Shown piece after piece: positions 1 through 10,500 of a stretch of DNA of 32,637 nucleotides (the first letter of the stretch is position 1; the number at the start of each line of letters is the position of its first letter). Under the pieces are notes generated by a model. The model saw only the letters and a list, made by a program, of their open reading frames with translations, was not told where the DNA came from and did not search any database. This DNA is from a virus. The position numbers were made by a program, and so were the translations under genes. The stretch lies in the UHGV virus genome UHGV-1394707, one strand, 5' to 3'.

Positions 1-520
<520 letters not shown>

Positions 521-685
521 CAAAAACACTGCAAATCATTTCAATAACAGCTTCAAAAAACGTTCAAAACCGATAACAACCAGGCTGTAACCAAATGACT
601 CATATCACAAATCAGCTCATGCCGTTTAGGTATGTTACATGTGTGATTATGTGAGGTGAAGTATGTTTTAGCTGGTTCATGGTTG

Positions 686-1294
686 TTATACGGCTTTTTT
701 TACATCTTGTGGTTCTTGTGAAGGAGCTACAAGACCTTCCTGTTCATAAATACCATACTTTGACAAAATCTCTTTACGAGTATCTGTTGGTAATGATTCA
801 AGCATTTTGGCTGTTTGTAAGGTTTGTTGCGAAATACCTTGCAAATTAGCCTGGATGGAATCATCGGAAGAAAAAATCTCAGGCATAAGAGCTTCAAATC
901 CTTTCTTTCTGAACAACTCAATCGCAGAATGCAGTTCCTTGTCCTCTAACAATTCGACAATTGCGATCAGTTTAGTTTTCAATGTGCTGCGGTCAGGTTG
1001 AGGATTTTTATTCTCTTGAGTATTTTTATGCTCAACCATTGGCATGCTCTGACTTTGGATAAACCACTCTATTGGACGCCCTGTTGCGTAGGCTATTTGT
1101 GCTAATCGATCTAAAGACGGGTATGTCTTGCCAGACAGGTAGTTTCTGATAACCCCATCAGAGAGTCCGCACTTAGCTGCAAACGCCCGGCTTGATTCTC
1201 CATTCATTGCCTCTTCAAGGCGTTCCTTGAAACGCATTATTTCAGATGGCATAAAAATGCGCTCTGCATTTTTGCTTTCTTTTTCACCTGTCAT
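686..1294 (-). CDS. c: Prophage repressor (positional equivalent of Mu c) with XRE-type HTH N-terminal domain and Mu-c-like C-terminal region
   Basis: Divergent from ner across an operator region. N-terminus ..SRAFAAKCGLSDGVIRNYLSGKTYPSLDRLAQIAYATGRPIEWF looks like a Cro/C1 HTH; C-terminus ..KEILSKYGIYEQEGLVAPSQEPQDVKKAV resembles the Mu c tail as recalled. Start taken at MTGEKESKN (ATG at 1294, 202 aa); the ORF-track start at 1345 has no RBS. Confidence 0.75.
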   Translation of the reverse strand: MTGEKESKNAERIFMPSEIMRFKERLEEAMNGESSRAFAAKCGLSDGVIRNYLSGKTYPSLDRLAQIAYATGRPIEWFIQSQSMPMVEHKNTQENKNPQPDRSTLKTKLIAIVELLEDKELHSAIELFRKKGFEALMPEIFSSDDSIQANLQGISQQTLQTAKMLESLPTDTRKEILSKYGIYEQEGLVAPSQEPQDVKKAV

Positions 1295-1463
1295 GCTCAA
1301 TCTCTCTGTTATATAAAGAATTTTACAGAATGCTTTGATTTGCATTGGTTAAAATAAAAATGCGCATAGCTCTTGAAATGCGCATTTTTCTGCGCTATCG
1401 TTTTTCCCGATAGCGGTAGCCGGTATCAGTTACCGAAAACGTTAAGAAAGTAAGGATCGCAGA
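1295..1463. promoter_or_regulatory. Operator / divergent early promoter region between repressor and ner
   Basis: 169-bp AT-rich gap between divergent genes; two copies of palindrome ATGCGCAT (~1360-1367, ~1378-1385); inverted repeat GCGCTATCG-N7-CGATAGCG (~1392-1415); CGGTA-N5-TACCG (~1422-1436). Confidence 0.6.
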
Positions 1464-1691
1464 ATGTCAGCAAAAAACCAAGACTGGCACGCAGAGCAGA
1501 TAAAGGCTGCTGTTCGTATGAAGGGGAAGACACTATCTCAATTATCCAGAGAGGCAGGCTTAAAGCCTGACACTATGCGTAACGTATTTCGCTGCCATAT
1601 ACCACGATACGAAGCAATCATTGCTAGATATTTGGATATGGAACCAGCCCAGATTTGGCCTTCTCGGTATATGGAGAAAACATCATGTTAA
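1464..1691 (+). CDS. ner: Ner-like DNA-binding early regulator
   Basis: 75 aa, first gene of the early operon, RBS AAGGA; ..[32 protein letters not shown] resembles Mu Ner (..WPSRY tail) as recalled. Confidence 0.8.
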
Positions 1692-3682
1692 CCCATTGGG
1701 TAACAGCGCAAGAATGCGTAGGAATGTCATGCTTTCCTAAACATGAGGTGAGTATTCGCCGCAATCTTGAAAAGCTTGCAGCCAATCATCCAGAACTACG
1801 TCGCAAGCGTACGGGTTCAAAGGCTTTGGAATTTCATATATCAGTTCTGCCAGCGGCAGCACGTGCTGAGTTGTTATTAAAATCTGAGCAAATAGAAACA
1901 AGCCAGGGGTATTTTGAAATCGCCCGCCCCACGCTGGAAGCCCATGATTATGATCGTGAGGTGCTGTGGAGCAAATGGGATAACGCCAGCGATTCCCAGC
2001 GCAGACTTGCTGAAAAATGGTTGCCTGCGGTTCAGGCTGCAGACGAAATGCTGAACCAGGGGATTTCAACAAAAACGGCTTTTGCGACCGTTGCAGGGCA
2101 TTACCAGGTCAGCGCATCCACTTTGCGGGACAAGTATTACCAGGTACAGAAGTTTGCGAAGCCTGACTGGGCGGCTGCGCTTGTTGATGGACGTGGTGCA
2201 TCCCGTCGCAACGTTCACAAAAGTGAATTTGACGAGGATGCCTGGCAGTTTCTGATTGCAGATTATCTGCGACCGGAAAAACCCGCCTTCCGCAAATGTT
2301 ATGAGCGTCTGGAACTGGCAGCCCGCGAGCATGGCTGGAGTATTCCCTCCCGTGCCACGGCCTTTCGCCGGATTCAGCAACTGGACGAGGCAATGGTTGT
2401 TGCCTGTCGTGAAGGTGAACATGCACTGATGCATCTGATACCGGCACAGCAGCGAACTGTGGAACACCTGGACGCCATGCAGTGGATCAACGGCGACGGT
2501 TATCTGCATAACGTCTTTGTACGCTGGTTTAACGGTGATGTGATCCGTCCGAAAACATGGTTCTGGCAGGATGTGAAAACCCGAAAAATTCTGGGCTGGC
2601 GCTGCGATGTGAGCGAGAACATTGATTCAATTCGCCTCTCGTTCATGGATGTTGTGACTCGCTACGGTATCCCGGAGGATTTTCACATCACCATTGATAA
2701 CACCCGTGGTGCTGCGAATAAATGGCTGACGGGAGGCGCGCCCAATCGCTACCGCTTTAAGGTAAAAGAGGACGATCCAAAAGGACTGTTTTTACTGATG
2801 GGGGCGAAAATGCACTGGACAAGCGTTGTTGCCGGTAAAGGCTGGGGCCAGGCAAAACCTGTTGAACGTGCTTTCGGTGTTGGTGGGCTTGAGGAATACG
2901 TTGATAAGCATCCGGCACTGGCTGGCGCATATACGGGGCCTAATCCGCAGGCAAAACCTGATAACTATGGCGACCGCGCTGTTGATGCAGAGCTGTTTCT
3001 GAAAACCCTTGCCGAAGGTGTGGCGATGTTCAATGCCAGAACAGGCCGTGAAACAGAAATGTGCGGAGGCAAACTTTCGTTTGATGACGTTTTTGAGCGT
3101 GAATACGCCAGAACGATTGTGCGTAAGCCTACCGAAGAGCAAAAACGGATGCTGTTACTGCCTGCCGAGGCAGTGAACGTTTCACGTAAAGGCGAGTTCG
3201 CGCTTAAAGTTGGTGGCTCCCTTAAAGGTGCGAAAAACGTTTATTACAACATGGCGTTAATGAATGCCGGAGTGAAAAAAGTTGTGGTCAGATTTGATCC
3301 ACAGCAGTTACACAGCACGGTTTATTGCTACACCCTGGACGGTCGGTTTATCTGTGAAGCGGAATGTCTGGCACCTGTTGCGTTTAATGATGCTGCGGCA
3401 GGCCGTGAATATCGCCGCCGCCAGAAACAACTGAAATCTGCGACGAAAGCAGCAATTAAGGCACAGAAACAAATGGATGCACTGGAAGTGGCAGAGCTGC
3501 TGCCGCAGATAGCCGAACCTGAAGCACCAGAATCACGAATTGTCGGCATTTTCCGGCCTTCCGGTAATACGGAACGAGTGAAGAATCAGGAGCGTGATGA
3601 TGAATACGAAACTGAGCGTGATGAATATCTGAATCATTCGCTGGATATTCTGGAACAGAACAGACGTAAAAAAGCCATTTAA
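1685..3682 (+). CDS. A: DDE transposase, MuA type
   Basis: 665 aa from ATG 1685 (overlaps ner stop, ATGTTAA); the ORF-track frame opens at TTG 1655. Body matches Mu A as recalled; candidate DDE residues in WINGDGY / TIDNTRG / VERAFG; MuA-type N-terminal winged-helix region. Confidence 0.92.
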
Positions 3683-3720
3683 TTAACGTTTAAACAAAAT
3701 TTAATTACGAGGTTATTCAG

Positions 3721-4659
3721 ATGAATATTTCCGATATTCGCGCAGGACTGCGCACGCTTGTAGAAAATGAAGAAACCACCTTTAAACAAATTGCTCTTGA
3801 GAGCGGACTTTCTACCGGAACTATCAGTAGTTTTATCAATGATAAGTACAACGGGGATAACGAGCGTGTTTCACAAATTCTGCAACGCTGGCTGGAAAAA
3901 TATCATGCAGTTGCAGAACTACCTGAACCGCCCCGCTTTGTGGAAACGCAGACGGTAAAACAAATCTGGACAAGTATGCGTTTTGCCAGCCTGACTGAAA
4001 GTATTGCTGTTGTATGTGGCAATCCTGGTGTGGGCAAAACCGAAGCTGCCCGTGAATATCGCCGCACCAATAACAATGTCTGGATGATCACCATTACGCC
4101 ATCCTGTGCCAGCGTTCTGGAATGTCTTACTGAACTGGCGTTTGAGCTGGGAATGAATGACGCACCACGCCGTAAAGGGCCGCTCTCCCGCGCCCTGCGA
4201 CGTCGCCTTGAAGGTACACAAGGGCTGGTTATCATCGACGAAGCTGATCATCTTGGTGCCGAAGTTCTGGAAGAACTCCGCCTGTTACAGGAATCAACCC
4301 GTATTGGCCTTGTGCTGATGGGAAATCACCGGGTTTATTCAAATATGACGGGGGGTAACAGAACGGTTGAATTTGCCCGTCTGTTTTCCCGTATTGCAAA
4401 GCGCACTGCAATTAATAAAACCAAAAAAGCCGATGTAAAAGCTATTGCGGATGCCTGGCAGATTAACGGCGAAAAAGAACTGGAGTTATTACAGCAGATT
4501 GCGCAGAAACCAGGTGCGCTTCGCATTCTGAATCATTCACTTCGCCTTGCCGCCATGACGGCTCACGGTAAAGGTGAGCGTGTTAACGAAGATTATCTGC
4601 GTCAGGCTTTCCGTGAATTAGACCTGGACGTTGATATTTCAACGCTGCTGCGTAATTAA
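3721..4659 (+). CDS. B: Transposition target-DNA activator ATPase, MuB type
   Basis: 312 aa immediately after A; Walker A GNPGVGKT, Walker B LVIIDEADHL. Confidence 0.9.
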   Translation: MNISDIRAGLRTLVENEETTFKQIALESGLSTGTISSFINDKYNGDNERVSQILQRWLEKYHAVAELPEPPRFVETQTVKQIWTSMRFASLTESIAVVCGNPGVGKTEAAREYRRTNNNVWMITITPSCASVLECLTELAFELGMNDAPRRKGPLSRALRRRLEGTQGLVIIDEADHLGAEVLEELRLLQESTRIGLVLMGNHRVYSNMTGGNRTVEFARLFSRIAKRTAINKTKKADVKAIADAWQINGEKELELLQQIAQKPGALRILNHSLRLAAMTAHGKGERVNEDYLRQAFRELDLDVDISTLLRN

Positions 4660-4674
4660 GAAGGAGAAGAAATT

Positions 4675-4902
4675 ATGATGGCCCGAAATATAAAAATGGC
4701 AACGGATGCGCAGAACTGGTTACAGGCGCGCGGGAGTCATGTAAATGAATCATATCTCGGCGTGGCGCGTCCGATTCTTGAAATCACTTACCCACCGGTG
4801 GAACTGGTAAAAAACGCGGTCAGAATTATGGAGCATAAGTCCGGGGTGGCCCGTTCTGTATGGACGGCCCGTCTTAATGGTTGCCAGATTATCTGGAGAT
4901 AA
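4675..4902 (+). CDS. Small early protein, positional equivalent of Mu kil (gp5)
   Basis: 75 aa, RBS GGAG, first gene after B; identity to kil not verifiable from sequence alone. Confidence 0.5.
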
Positions 4903-4904
4903 CG

Positions 4905-5135
4905 ATGTGTACTAAAGCTGAAAAATATATTGAATGGGTTAAACGGGTACAGAATAACAATGTGGCTTTGACTGCATTTAATTGCCCCAAATGCAAAGAG
5001 CAAATTATGACGCAATGCTCACCAGAAAATGAAGTATGGGACTCCTTTGCATGTTGTCCGTGGTGCAGCGCGGTTTTCTTTAAGCAGGTAAAAGGCGCGA
5101 AGGTAAAAGCCAGCGCAGTTATTCAGAATCAATAA
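4905..5135 (+). CDS. Small zinc-ribbon early protein
   Basis: 76 aa from ATG 4905 (RBS GGAG); CPKC..(24)..CCPWC four-Cys motif; low GC. Confidence 0.55.
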   Translation: MCTKAEKYIEWVKRVQNNNVALTAFNCPKCKEQIMTQCSPENEVWDSFACCPWCSAVFFKQVKGAKVKASAVIQNQ

Positions 5136-5146
5136 GGAGACGCAAA

Positions 5147-5416
5147 ATGGCAAAAGTTATCTTTGAGTTTACATGGCTGGAAAGTAGTGAAGGTTGCAAT
5201 GGGCGCAGAGAAGTTCTGGATGCAAAAGCATGTCTTGCAGATATCTCGCCAACGGAAAATACCGGACCTCATGATTTACTGGCAAATATCGTCCTGACTA
5301 TGGCTCCTGAAATTATTAAAAAGGCCAAAGATGAGATGCTGACCACTATGAAGAAAGTGGGTATGGAGGCTGAATGTGATTTAGTACCACATCCGGTGAA
5401 TGCGGTTAAACATTAA
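5147..5416 (+). CDS. Hypothetical early protein
   Basis: 89 aa, RBS AAGGAG, tightly packed in the early operon. Confidence 0.55.
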   Translation: MAKVIFEFTWLESSEGCNGRREVLDAKACLADISPTENTGPHDLLANIVLTMAPEIIKKAKDEMLTTMKKVGMEAECDLVPHPVNAVKH

Positions 5417-5436
5417 TTCGCAAAGGAACGCTGACA

Positions 5437-5856
5437 ATGAACGTCAAAATCCGAAATGAAATTCAGGCATTAATCCGAATTCAGGAACGCAATAACAACG
5501 GTGGTGAATTACGCGAGTTTATTTGCGCCCGGAAAGTTGATGATTGTGGTGAAAAGACTTACCTGATTGCTTTCGACCATTACAGCATCTGTGCACGTTA
5601 TTGCGGCGAAAGCATATCCCACGCCATTGCATTTGGCGGTGCGTTCAACGTGGATTTATGGGAGTACGTCATGGACCGGGAATACATCTGCGCATCAGAC
5701 CCTGAAGCCCGTGAAATGTGGCAGCGTATCTGGCGCGATTACCGGTTAATGGCAAAAGGCTGGGCGCGCTGCTGTTATTCCTCGCTTGCCCTGAAAGCGG
5801 TTCAGTTATCGCTGCGGCATATTCCGGCATCACTGCGCGAGCCTCTGCTGTACTGA
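5437..5856 (+). CDS. Hypothetical early protein
   Basis: 139 aa, RBS AAAGGA, Cys-rich (..DDCGEKT..CARYCGES..). Confidence 0.55.
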   Translation: MNVKIRNEIQALIRIQERNNNGGELREFICARKVDDCGEKTYLIAFDHYSICARYCGESISHAIAFGGAFNVDLWEYVMDREYICASDPEAREMWQRIWRDYRLMAKGWARCCYSSLALKAVQLSLRHIPASLREPLLY

Positions 5857-6156
5857 ATGGTGGCTGACATGAAGTGTAATCGTAAGCGCTGGTCACGCGA
5901 AGACCGGGAATTTATCGAAGCCAACGTCGGGAAAATGACCGTTGAAGAAATGGCGGAAAAACTGAAAGTCGCCACAACCGCCCTCCGGGCACATGCCAGA
6001 AGGCACGGAATATCATTGTGTGTATACCGAATCAGTGAACACGACAAATATTTATGTCGTGAACTTTATAAAGAAGGACTGGATATTCATGTCATTGCCC
6101 GAAAGATGGAATTAAGCAATCGAGCTGTATCCAGCATTGTATACAGCGGATATTAA
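5857..6156 (+). CDS. Hypothetical early protein with possible HTH
   Basis: 99 aa; ..MTVEEMAEKLKVATTALRAHARRHGIS.. looks like a helix-turn-helix; start ambiguous (ATG 5857 or 5869). Confidence 0.5.
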   Translation: MVADMKCNRKRWSREDREFIEANVGKMTVEEMAEKLKVATTALRAHARRHGISLCVYRISEHDKYLCRELYKEGLDIHVIARKMELSNRAVSSIVYSGY

Positions 6157-6175
6157 TTAACAGGAGCTTTAATTT

Positions 6176-6700
6176 ATGGCTAAACCAGCAAAACGTATCA
6201 AAAGCGCCGCAGCGGCTTATGTGCCACAAAACCGCGATGCGGTGATTACCGATATTAAACGCATCGGGGATTTACAGCGCGAAGCATCACGTCTGGAAAC
6301 GGAAATGAATGATGCCATCGCGGAAATTACGGAGAAATTTGCGGCCCGGATTGCACCGATTAAAACCGATATTGAAACCCTTTCAAAAGGCGTTCAGGGA
6401 TGGTGTGAAGCGAACCGCGACGAACTGACGAGCGGCGGCAAAGTGAAGACGGCGAATCTTGTCACCGGTGATGTATCGTGGCGGGTCCGTCCACCATCAG
6501 TAAGTATTCGTGGTATGGATGCAGTGATGGAAACGCTGGAGCGTCTTGGCCTGCAACGCTTTATTCGCACGAAGCAGGAAATCAACAAGGAGGCGATTTT
6601 ACTGGAACCAAAAGCCGTCGCAGGTGTTGCCGGAATTACGGTTAAATCGGGAATTGAAGATTTTTCCATTATTCCGTTTGAACAGGAAGCCGGTATTTAA
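6176..6700 (+). CDS. gam: Gam-like host-nuclease inhibitor (DNA-end binding)
   Basis: 174 aa, same length and position as Mu Gam; RBS AGGAG. Confidence 0.8.
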   Translation: MAKPAKRIKSAAAAYVPQNRDAVITDIKRIGDLQREASRLETEMNDAIAEITEKFAARIAPIKTDIETLSKGVQGWCEANRDELTSGGKVKTANLVTGDVSWRVRPPSVSIRGMDAVMETLERLGLQRFIRTKQEINKEAILLEPKAVAGVAGITVKSGIEDFSIIPFEQEAGI

Positions 6701-6798
6701 TACCACCATTAATATTTAATTAATTCACATTCTTTTAATTATGGCGCGATGCGTCAGGGGATTGCTCGCGCCTGAAACAGATTACTGAGGAATAAAAC

Positions 6799-7329
6799 AT
6801 GGTTGATGCAAAAATTCTGAATGGTGTCAGCGCATTATTACGGGCTTACGGACGCCTGACCTGCGGGGTTCTGGCTGAAAAAATGAATATGCTGCCCTCG
6901 TCAATGGTGTATTTCCTGCGTGATGCGGTTGATGCCGGAGTGCTCACCGAATGCAACGGATTTTATGACGTTCCGCGCCCGCGTCCGACGCCGCCTGTAA
7001 GACGAAACGCAACTGAGCAGCCTGCTGTTGATGATGCGGTGTGGTGTAACTGGCGTCGCTCATTACCCTGGGTGGAAGGTAATACCATCCCCGCGCTGGC
7101 AAAAGAGTTTGCGACGGGCGTGCTGACCTGTGAGTCAGTCCACATTGTTGCTGAGGTGGATAACAGAATGTGCGAACAGGGAATGCCCCGTTTTGTGATG
7201 GCTTATATCGATATCCGGCTGGGGCGTTTTATTTGCAGTTCAAGCGCCTGGAATATCACCGACCATGTACTGCGTTATCTCATTCTTGATTGTTCTCCGG
7301 CTCCCGCAGCGGTGCAGGAGGTGGCGTGA
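6799..7329 (+). CDS. Hypothetical early protein
   Basis: 176 aa, RBS GAGGAA; N-terminus may be a winged helix. Confidence 0.5.
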   Translation: MVDAKILNGVSALLRAYGRLTCGVLAEKMNMLPSSMVYFLRDAVDAGVLTECNGFYDVPRPRPTPPVRRNATEQPAVDDAVWCNWRRSLPWVEGNTIPALAKEFATGVLTCESVHIVAEVDNRMCEQGMPRFVMAYIDIRLGRFICSSSAWNITDHVLRYLILDCSPAPAAVQEVA

Positions 7330-7859
7330 TGTTTTTTAAAACGTCAAATCCCGCAGCACTGCTGGCGTGGGACCAGTTTATGGCGAACTGTCTGAAACTA
7401 CGCGAAGAAGCCCGCCATCTTGATAAGGTTCTGGGTTGTGGTTGCCGGTCAGTATTCAGCACAGGTATTGGTGGGCGTCATTTTCATGGCGTGAATTTTC
7501 CGGGGAATGAGCGCCCCTTCTCGCGGGAGCTGTGGACCGTACAACGGCCCGCATCAGGTAACAGTTGCAGGCCCAGAACTTCGCGAATACCTGCTCATCT
7601 CAGGGAGCAGGCAAGAGAGCTGGCGAAAATATGGCAGGAGAATATTCCGGTCACTTACGCCCGCACAGACGCTCTTTTACCCGCACTGGGACTGGATTTC
7701 AGCGCAACAATATTCGGGCCGCTCCAGTGGTTCCGTGTTGGTGATGTGATTTACGTCATGACGGGGATGACACCCGCGCAAGGCCGCATGACTGAAATCC
7801 TTTCTGACGAATTTATCCGGGCGCAAAAACAGGCGGAGGTAAACAATGGAAAACAATGA
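7329..7859 (+). CDS. Hypothetical early protein
   Basis: 176 aa from ATG 7329 (overlaps upstream stop, TGATG); the ORF-track frame opens at 7290. Confidence 0.45.
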   Translation: MFFKTSNPAALLAWDQFMANCLKLREEARHLDKVLGCGCRSVFSTGIGGRHFHGVNFPGNERPFSRELWTVQRPASGNSCRPRTSRIPAHLREQARELAKIWQENIPVTYARTDALLPALGLDFSATIFGPLQWFRVGDVIYVMTGMTPAQGRMTEILSDEFIRAQKQAEVNNGKQ

Positions 7860-8028
7860 AACATCGTATTCGTGGCTGGGGAAATTTACCACGGTGAAAC
7901 AGGAATGCCCGACCTGCGGTAATGAATCCCCTGAATATCTGAAAGAGTGCCCTCATTGTGGCGGGCAGAAATGCAACCACTGCGATATGGGCGATGACAC
8001 GGCGTGCATGAATTGTGAAGGTGAATAA
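7846..8028 (+). CDS. Cys-rich small protein (two tandem zinc-ribbon-like CxxC pairs)
   Basis: 60 aa, RBS GGAGG; CPTCG..(10)..CPHCGGQKCNHC..(6)..CMNC; low GC. Confidence 0.55.
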   Translation: MENNETSYSWLGKFTTVKQECPTCGNESPEYLKECPHCGGQKCNHCDMGDDTACMNCEGE

Positions 8029-8029
8029 T

Positions 8030-8320
8030 ATGAATAATGAAACTAAATTTACGCCTAAAGACCTGGATGAAGAACTGGTGAAAGCTAAGATGCTTGAGCG
8101 TATGCGCGATGTTATTGAGACTGCAATCAGTAAAGGCTTTTCTGCGAGAGAGGCCCTTGAAATTATGACACGGGAAATTCATCTCATACGCGACGAAGTT
8201 TTGTTGCATAACAAAAAAGCCCACAACAATATTGTTTGTCGTGAGCTTGGCGTTGATGATTCAGCGGTTATTCCACAGCGTCAGTATCTGTGTGCTCTGA
8301 TGAGAGGTTCCCGGCATTAA
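8030..8320 (+). CDS. Hypothetical early protein
   Basis: 96 aa from ATG 8030 (RBS AGGTGA; ORF track opens at GTG 8015); helical-looking N-terminal 60 aa; C-terminal tail overlaps a convergent - strand ORF. Confidence 0.5.
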   Translation: MNNETKFTPKDLDEELVKAKMLERMRDVIETAISKGFSAREALEIMTREIHLIRDEVLLHNKKAHNNIVCRELGVDDSAVIPQRQYLCALMRGSRH

Positions 8321-8627
8321 CAATATCCTGCCTTGAAGCCCAGAGCTTATTGAGCAGCAGATCAACATACTCATCGGCCTCAAAATCCAGTTCTTCGAAC
8401 GTTTTTCGGTTCTTATAGCTGGCCTGTGTATTTCTGATGATGTCATAAGCATCGTGCATGTTGATAACACCGTTTTCAATCAGCTTAATCATCAGATTAC
8501 CGACCAGCATAAAACCGGTTATACCAAAGAATTTATCCTGGTTATTAACAGGGGTGTCTTTCTGGTTTGTTTCGAAATCTGGGTTTTGTTCATCATCCGA
8601 CACTGTATGTTGTTCTTGTTCAGCCAT
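8268..8627 (-). CDS. Acidic hypothetical protein on the opposite strand (candidate acquired accessory gene)
   Basis: 119 aa with RBS AAAGGA 6 nt before the ATG; about 24 Asp/Glu vs 9 Lys/Arg; GC clearly below the prophage average; the + strand frames across this region look non-coding. Confidence 0.55.
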   Translation of the reverse strand: MAEQEQHTVSDDEQNPDFETNQKDTPVNNQDKFFGITGFMLVGNLMIKLIENGVINMHDAYDIIRNTQASYKNRKTFEELDFEADEYVDLLLNKLWASRQDIVNAGNLSSEHTDTDAVE

Positions 8628-8696
8628 AATATTTCCTTTTATGTTATTACTGAATATGGCGGTGTTGCAGCACCGCCTCTTTCCGGAGGTACGATC

Positions 8697-9248
8697 ATGA
8701 GTCGCACATCCCTGATTAAATTAATCCATGTCGCCCGTCGGGAGCTACAACTCGACGACGACACTTACCGCGCTTTTCTGATGCAGAAAACGGGCAAAAT
8801 CAGTTGCCGCGAGCTTACGGTTACGCAACTGGAACAGGTGCTCGATGCCATGAAAGAACGCGGCTTTAAGAAGCTGAATAAATACCCCCGTCGCCGCTTT
8901 AAGGAACATGTCACACCCCGCGAGAAGGTGTATAAAATCTGGCAGCAGATGGCAGAAGACGGTTTTATTACCGATGGCGGTGATGTGGCGCTGGATAAAT
9001 ATGTTCAGCGCCTGACCGCGAAACGCAACGGCGGACAGGGCGTTTCCACACTGGCGTGGTGTCATGGCGACACGCTGCTGACAGTCCTCGAAACACTCAA
9101 GCAGTGGCACATCCGCTGTATTCGTGAAGCCTTTTCCCGTCACGGGCTTCCATTGCCGGTCAGTCCGTCCGGTCGTGAACTGCGCGGCTATGATGCCATG
9201 ACGGCGGCTTATGCCCATGCCAGAAAGACACGGAGGATGGCACAATGA
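8697..9248 (+). CDS. gemA: GemA-like early protein
   Basis: 183 aa from ATG 8697 (RBS GGAGG), directly upstream of and overlapping mor (ATGA); same size and position as Mu GemA. The ORF-track extension to 8454 is rejected. Confidence 0.75.
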   Translation: MSRTSLIKLIHVARRELQLDDDTYRAFLMQKTGKISCRELTVTQLEQVLDAMKERGFKKLNKYPRRRFKEHVTPREKVYKIWQQMAEDGFITDGGDVALDKYVQRLTAKRNGGQGVSTLAWCHGDTLLTVLETLKQWHIRCIREAFSRHGLPLPVSPSGRELRGYDAMTAAYAHARKTRRMAQ

Positions 9249-9634
9249 CGGAAGATTTATTTGGTGATTTGCAGGATGACACCATCCTGGCACATCTTGA
9301 CAATCCCGCAGAGGATGCGTCACGCTTTCCGGCACTGCTGGCGGAGCTGAACGATTTACTGCGCGGGGAATTGTCCCGGTTAGGTGTTGATCCGGCCCAT
9401 TCACTGGAGATTGTTGTGGCTATCTGTAAGCATCTGGGCGGCGGTCAGGTCTACATTCCACGCGGTCAGGTTCTGGATTCGCTGATTCGGGATTTGCGTA
9501 TCTGGAATGATTTCAACGGTCGCAATGTTCACGAACTGGCAATCCGTCATGGTGTGACATTTAACACAGTCTATAAAGCCATCCGACGAATGCGGCGTAT
9601 AAAGTATCGTCAGTATTCCCCCCCTTTGTTTTAA
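9245..9634 (+). CDS. mor: Mor, middle operon regulator (Mor/C family activator)
   Basis: 129 aa; MTEDLFGDLQDDTILAHLDNPAED.. and ..FNGRN..TFNTVYKAIRRMRR.. match Mu Mor as recalled; last gene of the early operon. Confidence 0.88.
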   Translation: MTEDLFGDLQDDTILAHLDNPAEDASRFPALLAELNDLLRGELSRLGVDPAHSLEIVVAICKHLGGGQVYIPRGQVLDSLIRDLRIWNDFNGRNVHELAIRHGVTFNTVYKAIRRMRRIKYRQYSPPLF

Positions 9635-9641
9635 ACAGTAA

Positions 9642-9665
9642 AGCCGGTTAATCCGGCTTTTTTTA
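9642..9665 (+). terminator. Intrinsic terminator at the end of the early operon
   Basis: AGCCGG-TTAAT-CCGGCT hairpin followed by TTTTTTT, 8 nt after the mor stop. Confidence 0.75.
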
Positions 9666-9716
9666 CGCCCTCAATATTCTGTTGTGACGATAAAACGTTC
9701 ATGACAGGAGGGCAAC
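9666..9716 (+). promoter_or_regulatory. Candidate Mor-dependent middle promoter region
   Basis: Only non-coding stretch between the early terminator and the first middle-operon gene; -10-like GATAAA near 9688; an activator site would overlap the terminator dyad. Confidence 0.35.
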
Positions 9717-10277
9717 ATGCCTGAGTTTTCCCCTGCATTCCTTCATTCGCTGAATTTCGTTATACGCCCTGATGTTGAAGGTGGCTATGTTAATGATCCT
9801 GCCGACCGTGGCGGCGAAACGAAATACGGTATTTCTGACCGTCGCGACGGTGTTATTGATGGCAAAACCGATGTTAACGGTGACGGAAAACCTGATACCC
9901 GCATTAAGGATTTAACCCGCGAGCAGGCGGCGCAGATCTACTGGCGTGATTACTGGCTGGCGGCAAAGTGTAACGAATGGCCTGATGGCGTTTCCTTATT
10001 CGTTTTTGATGCTGCCGTTCAGCACGGTGTTAAACGCGCGATTCAGATCCTCCAGGCGGCAGCAGGTGTTGATGATGATGGCATCGTCGGTAAAAACACA
10101 CGCGCAGCCGTTCTGCGTGCCGATACTGACTGGCTGCTGTTGCAGTGCTTCCTGCGTCGTTCCCGCTATTACGCAGGGATTATCAAATCCAGTGCCTCGC
10201 AGGGGAAATATCTGAATGGCTGGTTTAACCGTCTGGATCTGCTCGCCAGCGCCTGTCGGGAGGTTCTGCATGGGTAA
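9717..10277 (+). CDS. GH108-family muramidase with C-terminal peptidoglycan-binding domain
   Basis: 186 aa, RBS AGGAGGG; ..VEGGYVNDPADRGGETKYGI.. and ..EQAAQIYWRDYW..FDAAVQHG..DDGIVGKNTRAAV.. are typical of Glyco_hydro_108 + PG_binding_3 proteins. Confidence 0.7.
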   Translation: MPEFSPAFLHSLNFVIRPDVEGGYVNDPADRGGETKYGISDRRDGVIDGKTDVNGDGKPDTRIKDLTREQAAQIYWRDYWLAAKCNEWPDGVSLFVFDAAVQHGVKRAIQILQAAAGVDDDGIVGKNTRAAVLRADTDWLLLQCFLRRSRYYAGIIKSSASQGKYLNGWFNRLDLLASACREVLHG

Positions 10278-10500
10278 AGGGTGGGATGCGTCCTTTCAGT
10301 TCGGCAGGCGTGAACGTTTACGACAGGAGGTATTACATCGGGAGGCCGGAGGCCCGCCACCAAAGCCAATGGATTACACAGGGCACGATGGCACCCACGG
10401 AAGTTATTACATGAAAGGCTGGCAGTCCGTTGATATGCCAGAAATTATCCACCATTGCCGGCGCTACAGAGAAAAATACCATGTACAGAAAATTCAGTGA
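10270..10500 (+). CDS. Small hypothetical protein in the middle operon
   Basis: 76 aa from ATG 10270 (RBS GGGAGG; overlaps upstream stop); His/Tyr-rich, no transmembrane segment. Confidence 0.45.
   Translation: MGKGWDASFQFGRRERLRQEVLHREAGGPPPKPMDYTGHDGTHGSYYMKGWQSVDMPEIIHHCRRYREKYHVQKIQ

Follow-up and report, generated by a model that had tools for sequence, protein, structure and literature searches.

In this genome, the five small genes between B and gam very probably belong to the semi-essential early (SE) region of a Muvirus prophage in ybdK of E. coli, where they form the part nearest the promoter and make up a set of small host-directed accessory genes. Variation in the block is confined to two short segments, codons 1–48 of gp6 and gp7 in full, each of which assorts as a cassette independently of the other in the relatives of Mu. 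The gp7 slot is occupied by Gnarl2 in Mu and by an apparently unrelated protein in most relatives. In lysogens, Pe drives a low level of transcription of the SE genes, which are largely uncharacterized (PMC3820752). The block sharpens the questions posed by a 40-year-old gap, the functions of the Mu semi-essential genes.

The window, defined here as the whole stretch of DNA analyzed, is the 32,637-nucleotide virus genome UHGV-1394707. Judged by its sequence, it is a Mu-family (Muvirus) prophage whose insertion site is E. coli ybdK, the gene found in the host flank. Outside the block, collinearity with Mu runs from the left end, at position 348, up to where the G segment begins. The coordinates of the block, its flanking genes, and its internal segments are given in Table 1.

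Table 1. Genes and segments of the block and its flanks (window coordinates).
Feature	Position	Strand	Description	Match or basis
MuB transposition ATPase gene (flank)	3721..4659	+		Pfam Phage-MuB_C, E = 5e-34; 311/312 residues identical to Mu
Five-gene block (kil, gp6, gp7, gp8, gp9)	4675-6156	+	between B and gam	
kil (Mu gp5)	4675..4902	+	75 aa, basic, pI 10.2	first gene 3’ of B
Variable cassette 1	4900..5049	+	gp6 codons 1–48	sliding identity profile
gp6 (Mu E5)	4905..5135	+	76 aa, four-Cys zinc-ribbon-like motif	PHROG 3786, E = 1.9e-39
Conserved linker	5050..5149	+	gp6 C-terminus and gp7 SD, reaching the first base of the gp7 ATG (5147)	
gp7-slot gene	5147..5416	+	89 aa, acidic, D108/PHROG-2230 type (window sub-type)	PHROG 2230, E = 3e-36, residues 1–89
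Variable cassette 2	5150..5420	+	gp7 coding body	sliding identity profile
gp8 (Mu E7)	5437..5856	+	139 aa, seven Cys, no recognized domain	PHROG 3690, E = 1.2e-96, residues 1–139
gp9 (Mu E8)	5857..6156	+	95–99 aa, basic, tandem helix-turn-helix-like	PHROG 323
Gam host-nuclease inhibitor gene (flank)	6176..6700	+		Pfam Phage_Mu_Gam, E = 4e-42; 173/174 residues as in Mu

By homology the block is already known as the Mu kil-gp9 segment, and public genomes of phages and E. coli already contain identical or near-identical proteins for all five genes. A megablast search with the block returned 14 Mu-family phage records, including vB_YpM_5/6 (99.5% nucleotide identity), PhiR68_1 (99.2%), and Mu (95.5%), and the block was matched in 91 of 5426 complete E. 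coli genomes. The copies in PhiR68_1 (PV340575.1), vB_YpM_5/6 (MT374853/4), and E. coli FDAARGOS_1059 align over the full length at 99.2–99.5% nucleotide identity. These blocks are essentially no different from that of the window, while their immunity regions differ from it; all five PhiR68_1 proteins are 99–100% identical to those of the window. The gene order B-kil-gp6-gp7-gp8-gp9-gam is the same in the Mu, D108, and PhiR68_1 annotations. In Mu, the corresponding genes kil (Mup05), Mup06/E5, Mup07/E6, Mup08/E7, and Mup09/E8 (NC_000929.1, 4315-5781) have the order, spacing, and flanks seen here. The kil to 9 segment of phage D108 (NC_013594.1) also shares this architecture; its Kil and gp9 are 100% and its gp8 is 99% identical to the window proteins, while its gp6 is 74% identical and its gp7, at 42%, is another sub-allele. 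The initial annotation had placed the block in a Mu-type semi-essential region, and the kil-to-gp9 early genes directly 3’ of B are indeed what is found there. All five have Mu orthologues, three at 95–99% amino acid identity (Kil 99%, gp8 95%, and gp9 99%), and near-identical counterparts in deposited phages, which largely amounts to the outcome named in advance as refuting the initial annotation, but only kil and the Mu allele of gp7 are characterized, and gp6 and gp7 vary (78% and 26% identity to Mu).

The description of the block as five tightly packed small ORFs after B was accurate. All lie on the same strand, and the gaps from the B stop to the gam start are 15, 2, 11, 20, 0, and 19 nucleotides. 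A Shine-Dalgarno-like sequence is present upstream of four of the five genes. Purifying selection acts on each ORF across Mu-like loci (dN/dS 0.09–0.32), which marks all five as real genes. No block protein contains a hydrophobic span, and all five are predicted to be soluble. Scans of the five proteins against Pfam, NCBIfam, and PADLOC gave nothing above curated cut-offs, and sequence and profile searches of the PDB with kil, gp6, gp8, and gp9 gave weak matches only, of which 2LVS (gp9) and small zinc-ribbon proteins (gp6) were the best. The block had no match in an Rfam scan. A repeat scan of the block found only two short two-copy direct matches of 14–15 nucleotides, of the type expected by chance.

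The GC content of the block is 46.2%, compared with a mean of 53.2% for equal-sized windows of the prophage, which places it in the lowest 4.3%. A lower GC content had been attributed to several of the ORFs. This is true of gp6 (40.7%), gp7 (42.2%), and gp9 (45.0%), whereas kil and gp8 stand at 50%. That difference of 46% and 53%, together with the lack of a Pfam family for three of the five products, could indicate a foreign island recently acquired by this prophage, or ORFs that are partly spurious. This explanation is extremely improbable. The same five genes occur in the same order in Mu, D108, SfMu, PhiR68_1, and Yersinia Mu-like phages, so an island unique to this prophage was rejected, and dN/dS well below 1 for all five rules out spurious ORFs. 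Exchange is also limited to two segments of 150–270 nucleotides, and low GC spans the whole early region (48%, versus 55% for the late region). Synteny with known phages, dN/dS, and cassette-limited exchange together refute it, and since the early region is low in GC throughout, low GC is no special property of the block. It characterizes the early region as a whole and the two exchangeable cassettes, and does not in itself point to a foreign block.

Within the SE region as identified here, the first ORF is, by homology, Mu Kil. It was previously said that none of the ORFs could be tied to a named function. This does not hold for ORF1, which is identical to Mu Kil at 74 of 75 residues and to D108 Kil at 75 of 75, and which matches PHROG 2743 over residues 1–75 (E = 2.8e-43). 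In three loci that encode the exact window gp7 (L053–L055), a gene of equal length at the kil position has a precomputed match to Pfam PF26843 (Kil_protein). The sequence GAAGGAG, which is SD-like, lies upstream of kil, and the dN/dS of the gene is 0.09. It is located directly 3’ of B in every surveyed Mu-like locus that spans that junction. A contig search anchored on Kil yielded only 3 loci, in a collection holding one genome per species. The original genetic identification of Mu kil is said to be that of Waggoner and colleagues in 1989 (Virology 173:378, in the reference list of PMC3594737). By analogy with Mu, the window Kil would be a host-killing protein. The PHROG 2743 label, “Kil protein for bacterial septation inhibition”, is a point in common with the lambda and Rac Kil peptides, which are FtsZ inhibitors and otherwise share with Mu Kil the name and the character of a small, early, host-toxic phage protein. 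The lambda and Rac peptides are not known to be related to Mu Kil, and FtsZ is not known to be the target of Mu Kil. For this reason, the label is treated as borrowed and not as a mechanism.

The gp8 protein is 95% identical to that of Mu. All of the homologues that were found lie in Mu-like prophages of Enterobacterales, and gp8 is missing from some E. coli Mu-like prophages. As judged from this distribution, gp8 is a lineage-restricted protein. Residues H48, C52, and C56 are invariant. A sequence-profile search of the PDB gave no match for gp8, and an AF2 model built with 12 homologues was unusable (pLDDT 44).

The gp9 protein is identical to that of Mu at 98 of 99 residues. Its likely start is the ATG at 5869 (M5), which the relatives share; M5 is invariant, and M1 at 5857 is not. 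A putative helix-turn-helix had been proposed in the block, and for gp9 the proposal is partly supported. The protein matches PHROG 323, which carries the annotation label “transcriptional regulator, D5-like” (E = 6.9e-29; a label only), and its PDB profile matches include the tandem-HTH protein 2LVS (E = 0.0034) and KorA (0.8). Pfam HTH families (RWP-RK, HTH_Tnp_1, Sigma70_r4_2, GerE, and others) match in both halves of the protein, but all of these matches, like those to NCBIfam HTH families, fall under the curated cut-offs. It is likely that gp9 is a tandem-HTH DNA-binding protein.

By analogy with published Mu work, the block genes would share one long early transcript, started at Pe, with ner, A, and B. 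If they are co-transcribed from Pe as in Mu, their products would therefore appear when the lytic cycle is induced and, in small amounts, in the lysogen. The same work suggests that the products are small soluble accessory proteins directed at the host and do not serve replication or structural functions. Matches to internal promoter and terminator signals in the block were at or below the shuffle expectation. A literature search for Mup06, Mup08, and Mup09, or their accessions, found no functional study.

The start of gp6 is taken as the ATG at 4905, following the Mu, D108, and PhiR68_1 annotations, and not the TTG at 4881 of the mechanical ORF list. The protein is 78% identical to that of Mu and 100% identical to that of PhiR68_1, and all eight of eight homologues carry a precomputed match to Pfam PF26833 (Phage_Mu_gp6). 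The motif C27-P-K-C30 ... C50-C51-P-W-C54, reported earlier as a zinc ribbon, stands as a motif call: C27, C50, C51, and C54 are invariant in the homologues, and C30 is present in 9 of 10. What gp6 has in common with classical zinc ribbons (Elf1, zf-LITAF-like) is limited to a two-knuckle CxxC...CxxC pattern whose spacer is 20 residues long. Its Pfam scores are under the cut-offs for both zf-LITAF-like (16.4 bits, cut-off 23.8) and Zn_ribbon_Elf1 (14.4 bits, cut-off 29.8). We infer that gp6 is a putative metal-binding mini-protein of about 9 kDa with four cysteines, which most likely binds a host macromolecule.

Differences between the Mu and window gp6 proteins are concentrated in residues 1–48, the segment that makes up cassette 1. 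Mu gp6 has an H14/C15/C17/H18 cluster (HCQCH) where window gp6 has RVQNN. The pN is 0.118 in codons 1–48 versus 0.036 in codons 49–76. At the nucleotide level, cassette 1 is 60–88% identical to Mu, D108, L004, and L014, and 96–100% identical to L011, with flanks at about 100%. In other Mu relatives, the slot contains an unrelated 70-aa ORF or is empty. Cassette 2 shows a different pattern, with 36–60% identity to Mu and L011, 40–72% to D108, and 94–100% to L004 and L014. The linker that separates the two cassettes is 92–100% identical to all five of the loci compared, and is the junction at which differing gp6 and gp7 alleles meet. The cassettes are probably swapped by recombination in their conserved flanking sequences.

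Across 47 surveyed loci spanning the kil-gp8 interval, the gp7 slot holds one of three allele families (n = 20, 16, and 12; the window belongs to the third), and these families pair freely with the gp6 states. Window gp7 is 100% identical to that of PhiR68_1, 42% to that of D108, and 26% to Mu gp7 (Gnarl2) in global alignment. The D108 protein, like that of the window, belongs to PHROG 2230 and has the SPE..GPHD motif. The SP-x4-GP[HQ]D motif of this family is kept in seven of nine retrieved cluster representatives, and two deviate (P0045 and P0044). The exact window gp7 protein is recorded in 2459 blocks of public assemblies. An AF2 model of window gp7 is weak (pLDDT 63), with a beta-hairpin at residues 3–31 and helices at residues 41–70. 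Its best BFVD match is an unnamed 82-aa protein (TM 0.69–0.74), and a fold search of the PDB with the model gave nothing at E ≤ 0.001.

Mu Mup07/E6 is gnarl2, for which an effect on O-antigen was shown in 2025 (Silas et al. 2025, PMC12373910). O-antigen bands were downshifted by Mup07, and ECOR strains were sensitized to T5 by 10^5-6 fold (PMC12373910). The initial annotation tied no translation to a named function, but ORF3 sits in a slot whose Mu occupant, gnarl2/E6, has a phenotype on record (PMC12373910). Gnarl2 (NP_050611.1) and window gp7 share the slot between kil/gp6 and gp8, are 87–89 aa in length, and are both small and soluble. Their N-termini have the first 8–9 residues in common (MAKVI[IF]E[IF]).

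Window gp7 was compared with Gnarl2 by hhalign, using three progressively larger profiles and one run in which the N-terminus was masked. The profiles aligned collinearly with a probability of 57–81%. With the first 9 residues masked, the similarity disappeared (P = 0.11). A pairwise alignment with shuffles, leaving out the first 9 residues of the two proteins, gave p = 0.015. When 1.8 billion representatives were searched with a HMMER profile, the proteins recovered were all of the D108/window type, and none was of the Mu type. Gnarl2 is a member of PHROG 10252, and window gp7, a member of PHROG 2230, has no match to PHROG 10252. Membership of window gp7 in the Gnarl2 family was rejected, as homology past the N-terminus was not established across the four tests. 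The function of Gnarl2 is not transferable to window gp7, because only the first 8–9 residues are in common.

Window gp7 could nonetheless be a functional equivalent of Gnarl2, a stand-alone protein that alters O-antigen or LPS for receptor masking or superinfection exclusion, with the three allele families matching host LPS chemistries or targets. This is possible but doubtful. The slot, size, first 8 residues, C-terminal His, and flanking genes are the same, and Mup07 has its O-antigen and T5 phenotype (PMC12373910). The LPS core or O-antigen is the receptor of Mu-family phages (PMC10434027). In addition to the hhalign values, Mu gp7 weakly matches PHROG 2230 (E = 0.009, residues 1–78). However, residues 1–9 account for the hhalign signal, and both the HMM search and the PHROG assignments separate the two proteins. 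Tentatively, and from its position alone, window gp7 might be a small binder of a host target that is surface-related or belongs to envelope biosynthesis. If the D108/window-type gp7 proves to be O-antigen-active, it would broaden a class of enzyme-free phage seroconversion factors that is still small.

The kil gene and the gp7-slot gene are the conserved core of the B-gam interval, and gp6 and gp8 are optional. Both core genes persist in loci where Kil identity falls to 53–57% and none of gp6, gp8, and gp9 is present (L051, L052, and L056). One E. coli prophage has the arrangement B-kil-gp7-gp9-gam, without gp6 and gp8. A functional pair, in which gp7 modulates or neutralizes Kil or shares an envelope pathway with it, would explain this core. 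Such a pair is quite unlikely. A gp7-family gene does follow kil in every examined spanning locus except L057 and L058, the divergent loci above included, and the two proteins are of opposite charge (pI 10.2 for Kil and 5.3 for gp7). Against this, gp7 alleles are exchanged freely beside a nearly invariant Kil, an exchange that is a poor fit to a co-evolving binding pair; the Gnarl2 phenotype arises without Kil (PMC12373910); and L057 has no gp7-like ORF after kil (ATG start, at least 45 aa).

The block, and above all its gp6 and gp7 cassettes, could instead be an anti-defense island of intracellular immunity inhibitors, with turnover driven by an arms race and not by envelope functions. This is improbable. 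The proteins are small and their genes low in GC, the slots show presence/absence and allele replacement beside a conserved anchor, and dN/dS values are relaxed (0.25–0.32) compared with 0.08–0.09 in B, kil, and gam. The adjoining gam itself encodes a nuclease inhibitor, and Mup07 was selected for the published accessory-gene screen (PMC12373910). In that screen, however, the Mu allele was scored as a surface (O-antigen) modifier and not as an intracellular inhibitor (PMC12373910). PADLOC models gave no match above noise, and no likeness to named inhibitors was found in PHROGs, Pfam, or the PDB.

Equally at low probability, the gp6 and gp7 slots might form a two-position exchangeable module of small envelope or surface modifiers, in which the D108/window-type gp7, the family that widely accompanies kil in divergent elements related to Mu, would be a second, sequence-unrelated class of stand-alone effector acting on LPS/O-antigen or the envelope. 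Under this reading, the gp7 alleles would be tuned to differing host surface chemistries and may share the pathway of Kil.

The window is collinear with phage Mu (NC_000929). Nucleotides 1-347 are E. coli ybdK (99.7% identity), which 5407 of 5426 complete genomes contain. Mu sequence starts with its left end at position 348, and window 348-805 corresponds to Mu 1-458. Matches at 95-98% cover 1892-5166, 5422-8055, 8658-9682, and 10478-32637, and the alignment runs out approximately 21 nucleotides within the G segment, at the window end. The flank and the collinearity mark the window, on sequence grounds, as part of a Mu-family prophage integrated in ybdK, of which it covers the left 32 kb, and the junction at 347/348 indicates that the gene is interrupted by it. 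Early-region genes were called from the ORF list and Pfam.

Features of the early and middle regions, with amino-acid identities, PHROGs families, and dN/dS among Mu-like loci (B and gam as reference)
Feature	Position	Strand	Basis of call	Identity to Mu / D108 / PhiR68_1	PHROG	dN/dS
Repressor	686-1345	-	ORF list/Pfam			
ner	1464-1691		ORF list/Pfam			
Transposase A	1655-3682		ORF list/Pfam			
MuB (B)	3721-4659		Pfam Phage-MuB_C, E=5e-34			0.08
kil (Mup05), ORF1	4675-4902	+	Annotated phage records	99% / 100% / 100%	2743	0.09
gp6/E5, ORF2	4905-5135	+	Annotated phage records	78% / 74% / 100%	3786	0.25
gp7/E6, ORF3	5147-5416	+	Annotated phage records	26% / 42% / 100%	2230	0.31
gp8/E7, ORF4	5437-5856	+	Annotated phage records	95% / 99% / 99%	3690	0.17
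gp9/E8, ORF5	5857-6156	+	Annotated phage records	99% / 100% / 99%	323 ('transcriptional regulator, D5-like')	0.22
Gam	6176-6700		Pfam, E=4e-42			0.09
60-aa Cys-rich ORF (gp13/E14 position)	7846-8028					
gp14/gp15 segment ORF	8015-8320	+				
gp14/gp15 segment ORF	8268-8627	-				
186-aa ORF between mor and C	9717-10277		Glyco_hydro_108 and PG_binding_3 domains			

The initial annotation described five closely packed small ORFs after B, several of them of lower GC, and both points are borne out. All five lie on the + strand; between the B stop and the gam start the successive gaps are 15, 2, 11, 20, 0, and 19 nucleotides. A Shine-Dalgarno-like sequence precedes four of the five. The gp6 start is the ATG at 4905, which the Mu, D108, and PhiR68_1 annotations also use, and not an upstream TTG. 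The gp9 start is ambiguous: the ATG at 5857 adjoins the gp8 stop codon and has no Shine-Dalgarno sequence, and the ATG at 5869, which encodes a methionine (M5) invariant among relatives, is the start in the PhiR68_1 and RefSeq E. coli annotations. Block GC is 46.2%, within the lowest 4.3% of equal-sized prophage windows (mean 53.2%). This is driven by gp6 (40.7%) and gp7 (42.2%), kil and gp8 being at 50%; across the early region as a whole GC is 48%, below the 55% of the late region. The five proteins have masses of 8.5-16 kDa, and none has a hydrophobic span. Purifying selection acts on all five ORFs across Mu-like loci. Within the block, promoter and terminator matches did not exceed shuffle expectation, Rfam gave no match, and the repeat scan returned only two two-copy direct matches of 14-15 nucleotides, likely due to chance.

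The block belongs to a well-known part of a classic phage. Positions 4600-6250 match 14 phage records by megablast, every one Mu-family: Yersinia phages vB_YpM_5/6 at 99.5%, Escherichia phage PhiR68_1 at 99.2%, Mu_3F6 at 96.7%, D108 at 91.2%, and Mu itself at 95.5% across 84% of the query in two pieces. Among 5426 complete E. coli genomes, 91 contain a match to this interval. Each of the five products already has an identical or near-identical counterpart in public genomes, and 2459 blocks of public assemblies contain the exact gp7 sequence. Precomputed newer Pfam assignments, read from genes of identical length at corresponding positions in loci encoding this exact gp7, give Kil_protein (PF26843) for the first product and Phage_Mu_gp6 (PF26833) for the second, with none for gp7, gp8, or gp9. 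The earlier statement that no product could be tied to a named function thus fails for Kil, whose identity is established by sequence. In E. coli FDAARGOS_1059, whose prophage is 99.5% identical, the gp6 gene (6303-6548 of that RefSeq locus) was not annotated by PGAP, and many RefSeq matches list only four hypothetical proteins; this small zinc-motif gene is therefore often overlooked by automatic annotation.

Variation within the block is concentrated in two cassettes. Forty-six IMG/VR loci were retrieved using gp8 as anchor, and genes were placed by tblastn; the kil-gp8 interval is spanned by 47 loci, counting the window, Mu, D108, and PhiR68_1. The sliding identity profile contains two separate divergent segments, 4900-5049 (gp6 codons 1-48) and 5150-5420 (the gp7 body). 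The linker at 5050-5149 is 92-100% conserved, and the outer flanks are approximately 100% identical. The gp6 slot has three states: it contains a zinc-motif gp6 (sub-alleles approximately 76-78% identical), it contains an unrelated 70-aa ORF (MIVINIHDNLG...), or it is empty. Occupants of the gp7 slot fall into three allele families, with proteins of 87 aa in the Mu type (n=20) and of 89 aa in both the D108 type (n=16) and the window type (n=12, with the window counted). States of the two slots occur in shuffled combinations across the 47 loci; the window joins the gp6 allele of one IMG/VR locus (L011) to the gp7 allele of two others (L004/L014). The SfMu paper had earlier given 77% identity for ORF6, and an ORF7 that is less than 50% identical to D108 yet identical to Mu (PMC4406740). 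Exchange of the cassettes would occur through homologous recombination within the linker and the flanks, all of them conserved, and the cassettes' lower GC and higher dN/dS are compatible with a faster-evolving role at the host interface. This two-cassette anatomy is an incremental and unsurprising point, of use for experimental design. The 70-aa ORF (MIVINIHDNLGISKLINLDNV...HVGNHHHAEDVF...) fills the gp6 slot in five Mu-like loci, L012 (986-1198), L019, L025, L026, and L032, and has no Pfam match.

Silas et al. (Nat Commun 2025; PMC12373910) tested the Mu occupant of the gp7 slot (NP_050611.1, E6/Mup07) in wild E. coli and gave it the name gnarl2. Its expression moves O-antigen bands downward in ECOR1 and ECOR22 and raises T5 infection 10^5-6 fold (PMC12373910). 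Window gp7 and Gnarl2 have in common their slot, size, and first eight residues, and these residues may simply lie within a recombination junction. Mu gp7 belongs to PHROG 10252 and meets PHROG 2230, the family of window gp7, at E=0.009 only. The two families align by hhalign with a probability of 31-81% depending on profile depth, and removal of the first 9 columns leaves P=0.11. In pairwise alignment without the first 9 residues, window and Mu gp7 exceed shuffles at p=0.015 only, and D108 and Mu gp7 at p=0.07. In a full HMMER profile search, 1.84 billion representatives yielded 11 clusters. Nine of these were retrieved; every one is D108/window-type rather than Mu-type, and an SP-x4-GP[HQ]D motif is present in most. 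Membership of window gp7 in the Gnarl2 family is unsupported, given the different PHROG, the masked hhalign result, and the lack of a Mu type among the HMMER clusters retrieved. The AF2 model is weak (pLDDT 63), with a beta-hairpin and two helices; it matches solely an unnamed viral protein (TM 0.69-0.74), and a PDB structure search with it returned no match. It is rather unlikely that window gp7 acts in a manner similar to Gnarl2; the idea is plausible because LPS core or O-antigen is the receptor of Mu-family phages (PMC10434027). The gnarl2 slot in most relatives holds a family apparently unrelated to Gnarl2, an incremental result that helps experimental design.

The zinc ribbon called previously in gp6 can be kept as zinc-ribbon-like, and the HTH as a probable tandem HTH in gp9. 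Both labels rest on conserved motifs or profile matches, and neither protein falls within a curated named domain family. In gp6, C27, C50, C51, and C54 are invariant and C30 is present in 9 of 10 sequences, down to 64% identity. The cysteines form a two-knuckle CPxC-x20-CPWC pattern. All matches to named zinc-ribbon families are under cut-off, and the PDB profile search gave only weak zinc-ribbon and zinc-finger matches. The Mu and D108 alleles carry an extra H14-C15-x-C17-H18 cluster, whereas window gp6 has RVQNN there. For gp9, many sub-threshold HTH family matches span both halves, and a seven-sequence profile matches the tandem-HTH protein 2LVS at E=0.0034 and KorA at 0.8. The 60-aa ORF at the gp13/E14 position (CPTCG...CPHCGGQKCNHC...CMNCEGE) has no Pfam match and is probably another small metal-binding early protein.

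Homologues of gp8 are confined to Enterobacterales Mu-like prophages. Full-length homologues have an identity floor of 76%, leaving out one apparently frameshifted 45% match (P0031), and H48, C52, and C56 are invariant. The AF2 prediction failed (pLDDT 44), and PDB sequence and profile searches gave no match. We propose that gp8 is a lineage-restricted, dispensable early protein.

The most distant window/D108-type gp7 relatives (P0047 and P0048) each lie directly after a Kil_protein gene, itself after a MuB-like gene. The P0047 contig, alone long enough to display downstream genes, carries others at that point, DUF3164 among them. An Enterobacteriaceae locus recovered by scanning species-representative genomes with Kil as anchor contains B, kil, a gp7-like gene, a 79-aa ORF, and gam, and E. 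coli prophage RIVM_C019217 reads B-kil-gp7-gp9-gam, without gp6 and gp8. The core of the interval is therefore kil plus the gp7-slot gene, and gp6 and gp8 are optional additions. This point too is incremental and no surprise, and is useful for planning experiments. MuB is mosaic in close relatives (100, 90, 74, 44, or 41% identity to window B), and the adjoining kil stays 84-100% identical (L004, L009, L015, L027, L030-L041).

Kil would provide a host-killing function. Its 'septation inhibition' label in PHROGs and RefSeq was presumably taken over from the Kil proteins of lambda and Rac. Small soluble gp6, gp7, and gp8 are predicted most likely to bind host components, and gp9 probably to bind DNA. 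The Mu semi-essential region, from B to C, belongs to the long Pe early transcript, consists largely of unassigned ORFs, and has low-level transcription in lysogens (PMC4553209, PMC3820752). From identity and synteny with Mu, the same would be expected of the window block.

Other segments of the early and middle region also vary. The immunity region (806-1891; repressor ORF, ner, and A N-terminus) has no alignment to Mu and no megablast match in 50,697 phage records; of 5426 complete E. coli genomes, just two, N1286 and SE11, contain it. The 219-aa repressor ORF has a Pfam HTH_3 domain in its N-terminal half, but its residues 122-219 share 53-57% identity with the Mu and PhiR68_1 repressors over their C-terminal half. 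The pattern suggests a rare immunity type in which the DNA-binding domain has been exchanged. The gp14/gp15 segment (8056-8657) does not align to Mu and is 99.7% identical to D108 and Mu_3F6 gene 14; it is therefore another exchangeable early-region segment. At 9683-10477, between mor and C, the 186-aa ORF takes the place of Mu E18/E19/gp20. The middle region thereby has a peptidoglycan hydrolase-like gene in addition to the normal endolysin gene, which lies further downstream. In FDAARGOS_1059 the interval from mor to C contains an ORF of equal length that carries a GH108 annotation.
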